Shown here piece after piece: positions 32,949 through 62,458 of a DNA stretch of 64,000 nucleotides (position 1 is the stretch's first letter; the number at the start of each line of letters is the position of its first letter). This stretch comes from a virus, in the IMG/VR virus record IMGVR_UViG_3300032116_000065, positions 1 through 64,000 of that record. One strand, given 5' to 3'. Both the position numbers and the translations under genes were made by a program. The notes below the pieces were generated by a model. That model ran no database searches. It had not been told where the DNA came from and was given only the letters and a program-made list of their open reading frames with translations.

Positions 32949-34655
32949 TTATCCGTTGAGTTTGATAATAACAATACCAGAGCCGCCAGACCCACCATAA
33001 GAGGTGAAAGAAGCATCACCACCTGCACCGCCACCACCACCACCAGTGTTTGTTGTTCCAGATGTACCATTCGAATTGGCAGGTGCTCTTGGTGCGCCAG
33101 CTCCCCCTCCTCCTGTTCCGCCAGAACCAGCAATATCACCAAATTGGGTTCTGCTTGTACCTGCTCCCCCGCCGCCAGCATAAGTTAATGTTATTCCTGT
33201 GATAGAAGACACAGCTCCACTACCACCATTACCATTTGAACCTGCTTGCGCGTTTTGACCAGCAGCTCCTGCGCCACCACCACCACCGCCATTAGCGCGG
33301 AAGTTTGGATAATCGCCAGTAAGAGCGTTTCCTCCATTATTTCCTTGTGATGGTGACACGCTCGGTGTATTACCAAGCCCACCATTACCACCACCATCAC
33401 CGTGACCACCACCACCAGAACCACCATCTGCAGCACCAACATTTGAAGGACCTCTAACACCACCTTTGCCGCCACCTGCGGAAGTTATAGTAGCAAAAAT
33501 TGAAGAAGATCCATTAGAAGCTCCTAAACCTGTATTAATTCCTGCTCCACCAGCACCAACTGTAACTGTGTAGGTGTTTCCTGCAGTTACTGAGAAATTT
33601 GCACCAACTCTAAATCCACCAGCACCACCACCACCACCGCTGGTGTATCCTCCTCCAGATCCTCCTCCACCAATAACTAGATACTCAACAGAAGTGACGC
33701 CTTCTGGACATTTCCATTCTGTTGTTGAATTGAAAACTTGAATACCAAAATTTGGCATTACATATTTAAGAATTACAATACCAGAACCACCAGATCCACC
33801 TGTTCCAGAATTAGAACCACCACCTCCACCACTACCAGTGTTTGGAGATGCTGCGGTATTTACTGCACCTGCGCCACCTGATCCAGCTGATCCAGCTGAT
33901 CCACCATAACCACCAACTCCACCAGCACCACCACCTGCATAGGTTACGCTAGAACCAGATAAACTTGACGCTGTTCCATTTCCACCATTTCCACCAACAG
34001 AAGTTGTTCCGTTTGTACCAACAGCACCTGATCCACCACCACCGCCACCACCATATGCTGGTGCACCATACGTTGAATTACCACCATTATTTCCTTGAGA
34101 CGGGTTTACAGATGGTATATTACCAGAACCACCTGTTTTTCCTGAGTTTGGATTAGATGCAACTCCTGCACCACCACCAGATCCTCCATTTCTACCATCA
34201 GAATCTACTCCACCATTTTTACCACATCCGCCGCCACCACCGCCAGCAGAAGTAATAGTATCAAATACAGAACTAGATCCATTAGATCCTGCAACAGTTG
34301 AACCGCTTGGAGTGCCAGTTCCACCGTTTCCACCAGCACCAACAGTGATTGTATAAGTGTTTCCAGCAGTCACTGGAAATGCAGTTCCTGTTCTAAATCC
34401 GCCAGCACCGCCACCACCTGCTCCAATGTCACTTGCACCACCACCTCCTCCACCACCAGCAATGACAAGATACTCAACCTCAGTGACACCTGTTGGACAT
34501 GTCCATGATCCAGATTGTTTAAATGTAAGTACAACAGTTTTTGGCGAAGGGTAATTCCATACTGGATTTACAACCTGTCGTGTGCGCGAAAGCACATGAG
34601 TTGGATTCAACCCACGATTTCCAATCGTTATAAGTGAACCAATCTTAAATCCCAT
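32949..34655 (-). CDS. adhesin-like protein with two glycine-rich domains
   Basis: Two VEYLVI.GGG...GSGIVI units. Confidence 0.85.
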   Translation of the reverse strand: MGFKIGSLITIGNRGLNPTHVLSRTRQVVNPVWNYPSPKTVVLTFKQSGSWTCPTGVTEVEYLVIAGGGGGGGASDIGAGGGGAGGFRTGTAFPVTAGNTYTITVGAGGNGGTGTPSGSTVAGSNGSSSVFDTITSAGGGGGGCGKNGGVDSDGRNGGSGGGAGVASNPNSGKTGGSGNIPSVNPSQGNNGGNSTYGAPAYGGGGGGGSGAVGTNGTTSVGGNGGNGTASSLSGSSVTYAGGGAGGVGGYGGSAGSAGSGGAGAVNTAASPNTGSGGGGGSNSGTGGSGGSGIVILKYVMPNFGIQVFNSTTEWKCPEGVTSVEYLVIGGGGSGGGYTSGGGGGAGGFRVGANFSVTAGNTYTVTVGAGGAGINTGLGASNGSSSIFATITSAGGGKGGVRGPSNVGAADGGSGGGGHGDGGGNGGLGNTPSVSPSQGNNGGNALTGDYPNFRANGGGGGGAGAAGQNAQAGSNGNGGSGAVSSITGITLTYAGGGGAGTSRTQFGDIAGSGGTGGGGAGAPRAPANSNGTSGTTNTGGGGGGAGGDASFTSYGGSGGSGIVIIKLNG

Positions 34656-34987
34656 TAGGTGATCTCTGTTCCGAATACGCTAAATGAAAGATTTGAGTTT
34701 GAAGTATATACAGAAATTACATCCGTGTTTCCAAGTGTAATTCCTAATGACAATGCAACAGTATCTAGTGCAGCAATCGGAGCATCATATGCAAGGTAAT
34801 GCTGATTGGCTAGAGCAGCCCCCGCCTGTTGTGCTGCAACACGATAAGTGCAATTTGATCCATTATTTCTATTTACAATCACTATAGAGGAAACAACTGT
34901 CTGTGTTGCTGCAGGAACAGTATATACGTTATGTGTGGTGTTTGCAGTTGCTGCAACCTGACCAAGAATTTTATATGTTTCTGGCAT
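34655..34987 (-). CDS. about 110-aa adaptor-like protein (paralog of 56215-56547)
   Basis: TYKILGQ...YTVPAATQ...FG.EIT. Confidence 0.8.
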   Translation of the reverse strand: MPETYKILGQVAATANTTHNVYTVPAATQTVVSSIVIVNRNNGSNCTYRVAAQQAGAALANQHYLAYDAPIAALDTVALSLGITLGNTDVISVYTSNSNLSFSVFGTEIT

Positions 34988-34988
34988 T

Positions 34989-58915: not shown

Positions 58916-61900
58916 TTATCCTCCAAATACAATAGCCATTGCTATTGCTTTTCCTGTTCCGATTCCTGCTGCGCCACTTGGACCAGATGGACCTGTTGGT
59001 CCAGTCGAGCCAGTTGGTCCTTGTGGACCCTGTGGACCAACTGCCATCAAATTCGATAGATTTCTAAAGTGCGTAAATGTTACAACATCATTCACTTGCG
59101 CTGCAGTGTTTAGAGTGACGATGTTATTTGTAACTTGATAATGAATGTTTGGTGTAAGAACCAAGCCATTCTTTGACACAACCAAAGATGCAATAGAAGT
59201 CACATTTTGCGTCAATGTAAATGTATTCGTATTTGATACGACAGTATTCGATGTTACTGAAATTTCTGTATTGCCAGTCGGACCAGATGGACCTGTTGGA
59301 CCAATTCTTGGAACAACAGCATCAACCCACTGAGTTGAGTTGCCATCATTGTAATAAATCTTCAATGAACCAGTGTTACTATTCCACCAGAAGTCTTGAT
59401 TCGCACGACCACCTGTTGGGGCTGTTGCAGAAACAGTGACGTTTGCGTTGCCGTCACCACCACCGCCACCACCAACACTTGTAAATGCAACGTTGATAAT
59501 TCCAGAATTGTTTGAAGTTGAAACAGTGACAGTTGCAGTATTAACGAAATTGATATTGCTAGAGACAAGAACTGATCCACTGTTTGTGGTGACTGTCGTT
59601 GCTGGACCCTGTGGTCCTTGTGGACCTGCGCTACCAGTAGCACCCTGTGGTCCTTGTGGACCAGTGTCACCAGTTACACCTTGTGGACCTTGAGGTCCTG
59701 TTGGACCTTGTGGACCCTGAGGACCTTGAGGTCCTGTTGGACCTTGTGGACCAGCAGGACCAAGATCGCTGATGTTGATTGTTCCAGCCATCGATGCGTG
59801 GTACTGACAGACATAATATAATGTGCTTGGTGCGTCATAAGGAACATCGAATGTGATTGTGCCTACTTGAGCGCCATTGTTTGTAACACCAGTATTGTAA
59901 ATGTTACCAGAACTGTACGCACCAGAAACAGACTGAATCCAGAATGGATGCCCACTTGCATTTACACTGAATGTGTAAGTAAACCCACGCAATAAATTTA
60001 GAGTTGGATTATTTGATCCATCAATTGTGTATGCACTTGCACCACTATTTGTTACAGTATATGTTCTTGATCCGCTAACACCTTGTGGACCTTGTGGACC
60101 AGTAGCACCAGTTGATCCTTGTGGACCCTGTGGTCCTTGCGGACCTGCGTCTCCAGCAACACCTTGAGGACCTTGAGGACCAGTGACGCCTTGAGGACCT
60201 TGAGGACCTTGAGGACCAGTGACGCCTTGAGGACCTTGAGGACCCGAATCGCCGATTGTATAGACTACAATTGATGTATTATCTTCTGGTGCTGCGGTGA
60301 ATACAATATTTGCACTAGCGATATTATAATCTACATTCTCTTGTAGCACACCATCAACAAAGACAAGTGTATGTGCTTCACTAGTTGGCGGAACAGTCAG
60401 AACGAATGTTGCGGTGTTTCCATCACCAGTAAATTCATTGCGAGTAGAACCAGGATTACCAGTGCCAGTTCCTGATGGACCAGTCGGACCAGCAGGACCA
60501 GATGGACCTTGCGGTCCAGCGCTACCTGTAGCACCTTGCGGACCTTGCGGACCTGGATCACCATTAAATCCTTGAGGACCCTGTGGTCCTTGTGGTCCTT
60601 GAGGACCTTGTGGACCAGATGGACCAACAACACCCTGTGGACCTTGCGGACCTTGTGGTCCTTGCGAACCTTGAGGACCTTGTGGACCAGTGTCACCTTT
60701 ATCACCAGTACGAACAAATGTAATAATAACATTCGTTGAGTTTGATAGTGTGGTTACACCTGATGTGTGAGCAATAGGAACAGCGAAATAATTAGGAAGT
60801 TCGGCATGCAAACCTGTGATATTAAAGAATGCAAATTCAAGAACATTTGCAGTGTTTGCAACTTTAAATGTTCCCTTAATTGAGGAAGTTGAATCGTCAA
60901 TCGTTTGCAAATAATTAAACACATTTGCTGTAGATTGATCAATGAAATCAATAAACAATGTATTTGCTGAAGATAATGTTACGTTATTAAACGTAAGATT
61001 TGCAACGCCAGGGTCTGTATTGGATGTACTTGTTAGGTAAGTATAATCAAATGTTGCACCACCAAAATCACCAGTATCACCTTTTACGCCTGAAGGACCA
61101 ATTGGTCCTTGCGGACCAGCAACACCTTGTGGTCCTTGCGGTCCCTGTGGACCAATATCACCTTGAACACCTTGTGGTCCTTGTGGACCCTGTGGACCTT
61201 GCGGACCAGATGGACCCTGAGGACCAACTGCACCTGATGGACCTGACGGACCATCATTACCCTGCGGACCAGATGGACCAGAAGGACCAGAAGGACCTGT
61301 TGGACCAGCAGCGCCAGCAGCACCTTGAGGACCTTGTGGACCAGAATCACCAATCGTGTAAACAATAATTTGAGTATTGCTATCTGGTGCAGTGGAGAAA
61401 ACTACGTTTGCACTGGAAATATTGTAAGACGAGTTTGGTTGAACAATACCATCAACAAAAACGATTGTATGTTCTTCACTAGTTGGTGGAACTGTAAGTG
61501 CAAATACCGCTGTATTTCCATCACCAGTAAATTCATTTCTTGTAGAACCAGGATTACCTGTACCAGTTCCTGATGGACCTGTTGGACCAGCTACACCACT
61601 TGGTCCTTGAGGACCTTGTGGACCAGTTGGTCCAGCATCACCATTTACTCCAGATGGACCAGTTGGTCCTTGTGGACCAGAGTCACCAATCGTGTAAACA
61701 ATAATTTCATCATTGTTTGCAGGAGCAGTCGTGAACACAATATTAGCATTTGCAATATTATATTCGGCATTTCCTTGCAAAATTGTTCCAACAAAAACGA
61801 GAGTGTGTTCTTCACTTGTTGGTGGAACAGTTAAAACGAAGTTAGTTGTATTACCATCACCAATAAAGATATCTCTGGTTGATCCAGGATTACCTGTACC

Positions 61901-62458
61901 AGTTCCTGATGGACCAGTCGGACCAGCCACGCCACTTGGTCCTTGAGGACCTTGTGGACCAGTACCACCACCGCCTCCAGCAAGAGATTCGAATGCAACG
62001 TTAACAACACCATTTGCTGTTGTTGTGACAGAAACAGTTACGTTAGCTGTATTGACAAAGTTGAATGTATTAGCGCGAATAGTAGTTCCGCTATTTGCTT
62101 GAGCAAAGACGTTACCAGTGAGATCTGTAATGGGCGCAGCATCCCATGTAAGCATACCTGCTTCATCAGCACCAAGAGTTGCAACAAGAGGAGAACCATT
62201 TGCATTTCCGTAATAGATGTAAATGGTGTTGCTTGAAACGTGAAGATCTTTCCAAACAGCCGTGTTTGATCCAAGGCTATATGCATTATTGGAAGATGGA
62301 ATAATATTCTGTGCGAATATTGTAGAGCCAACAGTTAAGTTGCCACTGATATTCGCAGATTGAACGTTGGTGATATTACGACTTGAATCGACAACAATGG
62401 TATTGGCTACATCAATACCATGTTTAACGCTGAAGGTCTTATTAGTCGTATTTGCCAT
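58916..62458 (-). CDS. long collagen-like fibre/scaffold with repeated GDGNT domains and a cupredoxin-like domain
   Basis: Extensive GPQ/GPS triplets; HPFWI...CQYHASM; ends [11 protein letters not shown]. Confidence 0.88.

Follow-up and report, generated by a model that had tools for sequence, protein, structure and literature searches.

How are tail fibre pieces that are encoded by separate genes matched to the right partners when one phage carries several of them? This question is raised by the fibre-gene block of the IMG/VR virus record IMGVR_UViG_3300032116_000065, in which one arrangement of three genes occurs four times. The record is 101 kb long and is estimated to be about 60% complete. 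The window analysed here is a stretch of 64,000 nucleotides (nt), positions 1 to 64,000 of the record. The fibre genes occupy 29-64 kb of the window on the minus strand, and the rest encodes ribonucleotide reductase, primase, and 2OG-Fe(II) oxygenases. Each gene triad (T1 to T4) lies on the minus strand in the order stalk, small connector, and double glycine-rich distal protein. Matching end-peptides recur with this trio in hundreds of aquatic phages, and the three genes therefore probably encode a previously undescribed fibre joint of a snap-together kind.

The four triads were located as follows. T1 starts with a proximal fibre of 1180 amino acids (aa) (58916..62458), which contains collagen repeats and DUF4183 and ends in a class A C-terminal tail (codons at approximately 58919-58960). 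Its 123-aa class A connector (58543..58914; MANPNIVNV..SYEEIS) is followed by a 570-aa distal protein (56828..58540) with the class A head MTRRYRGGII..ASGIYS..GFWP. T2 consists of an 84-aa mini-stalk (56559..56813) with the class B tail ..SFHPFLLGL, a 110-aa class B connector (56215..56547; MPQTYKVLGQ..VEIT), and a 566-aa distal protein (54513..56213) starting with MATKVFSLASL. The 63-aa mini-stalk of T3 (43721..43912) has an N-terminal hook, an Ala-rich segment, and the class C tail ..GVSLGLVIALS; it precedes a 108-aa class C connector (43382..43708; MAQVFKL..SILEMT) and a 541-aa distal protein (41760..43385) with the class C head MTTRFIGARR. T4 has a 64-aa mini-stalk (34989..35183) with the same hook and Ala-rich body as T3 and the class B tail ..FAKSFLTGL, a 110-aa class B connector (34655..34987; MPETYKILGQ..TEIT), and a 568-aa distal protein (32949..34655) with the head MGFKIGSLITIGNRGLNP. 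The connectors are thus 108-123 aa long and all end in E(I/M)(T/S), and the distal proteins range from 541 to 570 aa.

The positions and order given for the four triads in a preliminary description of this DNA were borne out throughout. That description had called all first members stalks, which holds for T1, a real fibre; those of T2 to T4 are mini-proteins of 63-84 aa and not fibres. T2 and T4, the TYK.LGQ paralogs, fall in the same broad class, so the genome contains three classes (A, B, and C) rather than four. A profile of the four connectors found just these four across the whole 101-kb record and no fifth. Likewise, patterns for the three tail motifs matched 4 of 732 open reading frames (ORFs), each immediately upstream of its cognate connector gene, and the triad pattern exceeds chance. 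A 64-aa ORF (51160-50966) that precedes a 570-aa ORF (50953-49241) was examined as a candidate fifth triad and rejected, since the first has no tail, a connector is lacking, and the second protein is not rich in glycine. The mini-stalks of T3 and T4 had been described as paralogs with different tails, and they are 68% identical over residues 5-51, with divergence confined to the last ~12 residues.

The pairing of tails with connectors was then analysed across phages. At least 568 class A loci (ANPNIVNV type) came from the IMG/VR scan, 80 of them being retrieved, and the scan for class B (TYKxLGQ type) gave 65 loci. The class C scan of IMG/VR found no loci, and class C therefore rests on few metagenomic loci and on cultured phages. 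In the IMG/VR loci, the ORF upstream of a class A connector (MANPNIVNV) ends in ..G(I/V)STGK(A/S)IAMAMIFG(F/G/Y), and that upstream of a class B connector (xTYKVLGQ) in ..(H/S)PFLLMGA, ..FMLMGA, or ..FLLAGM. The tail before class C connectors (AQVFK-like, T3 type) is ..G(L/I)xIAL(G/S/T). Over 117 distinct IMG/VR connectors, 107 had the cognate tail (57/62 in class A, 47/52 in class B, and 3/3 in class C), and no cross-class pair occurred in any class. When connectors were clustered at 70% identity, tail classes were mixed in none of the 36 clusters. Class matching was also seen in cultured phages, and two classes occur in one genome, each beside its own tail, in L008, L049, L070-73, and Synechococcus phage S-SKS1. 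The preliminary description had named its own refutation, namely that tail classes and adaptor classes would combine at random from genome to genome; this was tested, and its statement that tail type tracks adaptor type survived.

The tail could follow the connector or the stalk body. Stalk bodies, with the last 20 residues removed, were compared all against all, and any similarity was found in 633 of 2214 (29%) within-class pairs. Alignment is limited to the final 8-16 residues, and the portion before the tail ranges in length between 54 and over 1300 residues. Conversely, similarity between bodies was seen in 59 cross-class stalk pairs, reaching 63% identity across ~100 residues, and these stalks nevertheless carry the tails that match their own neighbour. 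Judging from these comparisons, the tail goes with the connector and not with the stalk body, because similar bodies, including the T3 and T4 stalks, bear different tails that are true to class. At conserved tail residues, codon positions 1 and 2 are invariant, and position 3 has an entropy of 1.4-1.8 of 2 bits. Shine-Dalgarno-like GGAG strings overlap the final tail codons. Since third positions are nearly random, selection acts on the peptide and not on a ribosome-binding site, an RNA element, or the Shine-Dalgarno-like strings. Within class A, the two forms of the tail ending (IFGF versus VFG) also go with two forms of the connector C-terminus (W versus Y/F). Relatedness confounds this correlation, which was therefore left out of the evidence.

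A third matching element was found in the distal protein, whose first ~20 residues are class-specific whatever its body. The class A head reads M(S/T)xRYxGG(V/I)(I/L)SAT..ASGVW(T/S)L..Q..GxWP. The class B head, M(A/S/G)(V/I/F)(T/K/R)S.., is represented by MGFKIGSL in T4 and MATKVFSL in T2. The class C head contains (Y/F)(I/V)(G/S)(G/S/A)(R/K), as in T3, in HTVC010P gp27 (MAYIGRE), in P-SSM2 (MTRFRSGR), and in S-SM2 (GYIGRS). The heads of T1 to T4 all fit their own classes. With similar-body partners excluded, 88 of 94 heads had a nearest neighbour from their own connector class, whereas shuffled labels gave 47 on average and at most 60. In addition, 55 cross-class pairs of downstream proteins have similar bodies. 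One metagenome contig (Ga0194133_10044189, L161, 667-3919) encodes a 149-aa stalk ending in ..PTPTVFLLMGA and a class B connector, followed by three single-domain glycine-rich genes that each open with a class B head (MTIKSLKTG, MTISSLRTG, and MAVVSLKNK). The three products might serve a single socket, either as alternative tips or as a mixture.

The distal proteins of the window are doubly glycine-rich, as had been described. All four contain two stretches of PF21722 (Gly_rich_2; E 5e-32 to 3e-56), score 112-191 bits for this family against a gathering cut-off of 24.3, and have Atlas neighbours that are all PF21722. A phmmer search of the glycine-rich domains and a 10-domain profile gave no significant match to a solved polyglycine domain among PDB sequences. 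An hhalign comparison with the neighbouring ALK_LTK_GRD-bearing protein gave a probability of 19%. Sequence searches demonstrated no link between the Gly_rich_2 domains of the window and gp38 (S16), Pam3 gp24, or the ALK glycine-rich domain. The name adhesin for these proteins, and hence a putative role in receptor binding, draws on the Pfam family name and on analogy to Pam3 gp24 (PMC9608196). At related loci the downstream protein is glycine-rich in 26 of 67 class A and 25 of 54 class B cases, the remainder being LamG-like tips or long fibres. The joint is therefore not specific to glycine-rich adhesins, which are mounted in just ~40-45% of related loci. The plug-and-socket code put forward in the preliminary description is partly supported, namely by the class association and by the selection on the tail, and is extended by the head and by the fusions described below.

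The connector itself belongs to a large family, and no description of it was found in the searched literature. An exhaustive profile search gave 1749 clusters at 50% identity (E<=0.001). No Pfam family (E<=0.1, apart from chance-level hits), NCBIfam family, or PHROG chaperone family matched the connectors, and their profile had no match among PDB sequences. The T2 to T4 connectors matched phrog_1276, phrog_26609, and phrog_11338 (E 2e-6 to 2e-10), and T1 matched none; the alignments cover just the first ~110 of the 325 positions of phrog_1276 and a central part of phrog_11338, a 'tail fiber protein' family. Many homologues are tandem doubles of the connector domain (~215-240 aa; P0005, P0007, P0010, and P0012).

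The AlphaFold2 (AF2) model of the T4 connector is a jelly roll of nine strands (pLDDT 90.8, pTM 0.80). Foldseek placed it with the capsid jelly rolls of satellite tobacco mosaic virus (STMV) and infectious bursal disease virus (IBDV) at probability 1.0. The best VIA-align neighbour was the trimeric cement protein of KHP40 (7dou; Z 10.0, root-mean-square deviation 2.7, 103 residues), and 4ind scored Z 9.3. Other neighbours were the turret proteins of Sulfolobus turreted icosahedral virus (STIV) and HFTV1, Ena pilus subunits, and nucleoplasmin. The structural neighbours are all oligomeric, but at such Z scores only a common fold can be taken as certain from the model. Class A has a single contiguous stretch without variation, the octapeptide MANPNIVN at the N-terminus, which is identical in 58 sequences. 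A single chain reading through from a class A stalk into its connector (L138, in-frame stops replaced by Gly) was folded with 22 paired rows plus unpaired connectors. In this artificial, monomeric construct with a 9-residue linker, no confident 1:1 docking was obtained: the tail helix (residues 28-38) had a pLDDT of 65-70, the linker was below 50, and the MANPNIVN coil was at ~62. A low-confidence coil would be expected of a segment that becomes ordered on a partner.

Natural fusions place the connector domain before tip domains. It is N-terminal to LamG-like domains in P0059 and P0145, precedes IPT and glycine-rich domains in P0060, and precedes glycine-rich/LamG domains in P0127. In P0054, two connectors are followed by collagen and then by a head domain. 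When P0059 and P0060 served as scan queries, unfused relatives were all that was found.

These results, namely the three-way class association, the protein-level selection on the tail, the modelled jelly roll, and the natural connector-tip fusions, are the ground on which a mechanism can be proposed. We favour, with moderate confidence, the reading that the triads encode a three-piece, non-covalent, class-coded fibre joint. The proximal piece, either a long collagen-like fibre or a mini-stalk of 63-84 aa, would end in a conserved hydrophobic tail peptide, and the distal piece, here a double glycine-rich protein, would begin with a conserved head peptide. Between them, the ~110-aa jelly roll, probably as an oligomer (trimer), would recognise both peptides by direct binding. 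The connector would then be part of the virion, and the stoichiometry of the joint would probably be 3:3:3, as collagen implies trimers. At least three classes of tail, connector, and head (A, B, and C) would coexist and, if orthogonal, would keep different fibres in one cell apart, and the tip proteins would be exchangeable or chainable in evolution.

A broader form of this proposal is possible, although we advance it tentatively. Aquatic phages of all three tail morphologies might share a universal self-sorting connector, a small oligomeric jelly roll, which would use C-terminal peptides of ~10-16 residues, N-terminal peptides of ~20 residues, and at least three orthogonal classes to mount several fibres or serial chains and to let tips be exchanged by their end-peptides alone.

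The cultured phages show how such joints are arranged in annotated genomes, where class C is the common type. Class C sets were found in HTVC010P (gp23/gp24), P-SSM2 (293/294), S-CAM9 (gp224/gp223), S-SM2 (032/033), and S-SKS1 (00012/00011), a class C variant in MaMV-DC (43R/44R), and a class B-like set in Pontimonas phage phiPsal1. S-SKS1 (L150, NC_020851; 3158-13318) has two joints in series. In the first, a 928-aa tail fiber protein (00012, ..PLIIALG) is followed by a class C connector (00011) and the 1727-aa protein 00010. In the second, 00010, annotated as 'baseplate wedge subunit', ends in the class A-like tail ..SPIMMGMIF and is followed by a class A connector (00009) and a 489-aa LamG tip (00008). 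The class C connector gp24 of HTVC010P carries the RefSeq label 'virion structural protein', a label whose source is unverified.

Two further observations concern these phages. In phiPsal1 (L001, MG835450), an unannotated 298-aa glycine-rich ORF (6349-7245) lies right after the connector, and the record lists two off-frame ORFs, phiPsal1_022 and _023, over it. In HTVC010P (L191, 21026-22984), the paralogous ~210-aa proteins gp30-gp32 start with MALxxLxx, MALVKYNNN, and MSIVKLNNR, which resemble a class B head, and the sole connector detected in this phage is of class C.

Several points weigh against a class-coded joint. By motif, ~9% of the connectors (10/117) have no recognisable upstream tail; some of these are motif misses, two have an intervening HNH endonuclease gene, and others end differently, e.g. 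in ..KWYPSY. S-CBWM1 (L154, MG450654) encodes a class A-like orphan homologue (gp15, 6001-6396; MAAPNIAAA..VYEEIS), annotated as 'putative lectin', which has no tail-bearing neighbour and lies among non-structural genes for nucleotide-sugar and phosphoesterase functions, an exception to the cassette rule. The connector family is absent from S-SM1, Syn9, and S-PM2, the cyanomyoviruses with published virion proteomes, which leaves proteomics neutral on its presence in virions. Adjacent genes are co-inherited, and the association is therefore partly phylogenetic; the contrasts between body and tail lessen this effect and do not remove it. Furthermore, since T2 and T4 share a broad class, orthogonality within this genome would need the finer KSFL and HPFLL sub-types, whose specificity is hinted at solely by co-inherited relatives.

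The main rival is an unlikely one in our assessment: the ~110-aa protein would be an assembly chaperone that recognises the hydrophobic C-terminal peptide of the upstream protein and helps that protein to fold or trimerise without entering the virion, and the third gene would merely be the next fibre gene. Fibre followed by small protein is indeed the gene order of Tfa/gp38-type chaperones, an exposed hydrophobic tail is a plausible handle, and Pam3 gp25, which lies beside a glycine-rich fibre and is not found in virions, provides a precedent (PMC9608196). However, the connectors matched no chaperone family in Pfam, NCBIfam, or PHROG, and a chaperone would leave the class-specific head of the third protein unexplained. 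The fusions also point the other way: intramolecular chaperones are C-terminal, and the connector domain occupies the N-terminal end of the fused tip proteins. Mini-stalks of 63 aa are improbable clients; they contain little beyond the hook, the Ala-rich segment, and the tail, and therefore fit a linker better than a chaperone substrate. The serial chaining in S-SKS1 likewise disagrees with a chaperone, as does the virion label given to gp24 of HTVC010P.

Less probable still is a lectin-like receptor-binding or accessory module at the fibre end, for which the tail would be only a docking site and the third product independent. This would agree with the 'putative lectin' annotation of the S-CBWM1 and DSL-LC04 homologues, with CBM32, CBM62, and discoidin among the structural neighbours (Z 7-8), and with the N-terminal signal peptides seen on some homologues (P0016 and P0055). 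The CBM matches, however, are no better than generic jelly-roll ones, and across unrelated hosts the connector is conserved well beyond usual receptor binders, with MANPNIVN invariant in all 58 class A sequences. The association with the head class and the fusions to tip domains indicate a protein-protein role instead. The least probable of the three is mere co-inheritance of a conserved cassette, whose termini would serve as trimerisation caps, in translational coupling, or the like, with no specific recognition. The genes are adjacent, often with an overlap of 1-4 nt, and the GGAG strings in the final tail codons would suit this explanation. Yet the third codon positions of the tail are nearly saturated, so that the nucleotide sequence is not conserved, and conservation spans 10-16 residues, past any ribosome-binding site. 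In addition, homologous stalk and tip bodies bear different termini matching the adjacent connector class, and the same termini occur on unrelated bodies.

The proposed joint was compared to known systems. In T2 and S16, gp38 is a separately encoded glycine-rich tip mounted on the fibre end; in cyanophage Pam3, the fibre gp24 has a glycine-rich distal domain as its presumed receptor-binding tip, and the adjoining gene encodes gp25, a small chaperone with a beta-sandwich domain (PMC9608196). As proposed for the window triads, the tip of T2/S16 comes from its own gene and caps a fibre, but gp38 docks on gp37 by its own N-terminal domain without an intermediary, whereas the triads have a connector. 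Pam3 is similar in combining a glycine-rich presumed tip with an adjacent small partner that contains a beta-sandwich. It differs in that gp24 has its own baseplate-docking helix and that gp25, a Mu Tfa-like protein absent from virions, is encoded downstream; in the window the connector gene precedes that of the glycine-rich protein, and the connector shows no similarity to Tfa. Bacillus Ena appendages (7a02 and 8pdz; VIA Z 9.0 and 8.7) have a jelly-roll subunit of similar size and a short terminal connector peptide. Ena fibres, however, are homopolymers that are disulfide-locked via the subunit's own N-terminal peptide, the identity to the connector is 7-10%, which amounts to no sequence similarity, and the Z scores are typical of generic jelly rolls.

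The long tail fibre of T4 (gp34-gp35-gp36-gp37) consists of separately encoded segments in series, which are joined non-covalently and have a small protein where they meet. The proposed joint would resemble it in its serial non-covalent segments and small joint protein, and no gp35 or gp36 family was among the PHROG and Pfam matches of the connector. Unlike the T4 joints, the connector is a ~110-aa jelly roll with class-coded end-peptides on both partners and several orthogonal-looking classes per genome. BppU/BppL of TP901-1 and the branched tailspike adaptors of CBA120/G7C mount exchangeable receptor-binding proteins. These are also dedicated adaptors, with folds and families that differ from the connector, and we know of no described code of a short C-terminal peptide and an N-terminal head peptide in either system.

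Multi-part tail fibres and adaptor-mounted receptor-binding proteins are thus already known, and the jelly-roll connector family is undescribed in the sources searched. This family is very common, and its carriers include highly abundant marine phages, among them many Synechococcus myoviruses, P-SSM2 of Prochlorococcus, and the pelagiphage HTVC010P. A class code, if real, would explain how the products of the numerous genes labelled 'tail fiber' or 'hypothetical' in cyanophages and pelagiphages connect into fibres. It would also give a sequence-only rule to predict which tip goes on which stalk, and short portable peptides for host-range studies in environmental phage-host pairs.

Other fibre genes of the window are related to the mini-stalks of T3 and T4 through their N-termini. 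Seven proteins start with one hook, MAxKLxGxAIxxxT(I/V)TxTQ(L/M). Five are large fibre proteins (31332-32936, 35186-37762, 37762-40329, 44489-45991, and 45993-48431), in which the hook is followed by IPT, LamG, or glycine-rich domains; the other two are the mini-stalks of T4 (34989-35183) and T3 (43721-43912). All seven presumably dock at one kind of site, and the two mini-stalks look like linkers that turn a hook into a tail.

A 33-aa ORF (40342..40443, minus strand) joins a T4-type mini-stalk start, MARKLKGGA, to the end of a glycine-rich protein, DGDASFASYGGSGGSGIIITKLNG. Its flanks duplicate the 3' end of T4 with the spacer (40321-40425 matches 32928-33032), and the ORF appears to be a scar left by the collapse of a fifth cassette. 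At cassette junctions elsewhere, homing-endonuclease-like ORFs were observed: HNH between stalk and connector (L133 and L111), and GIY-YIG-type ORFs between connector and third gene (L118, L136, and L095). Downstream of the T3 glycine-rich gene, a 122-aa protein (41088-41456, minus strand) belongs to phrog_7759 and has no Pfam match. Its homologue in phiPsal1 (L001, 7245-7625) lies directly after the glycine-rich ORF, and the phrog_7759 protein may serve the glycine-rich proteins as an accessory factor or chaperone.

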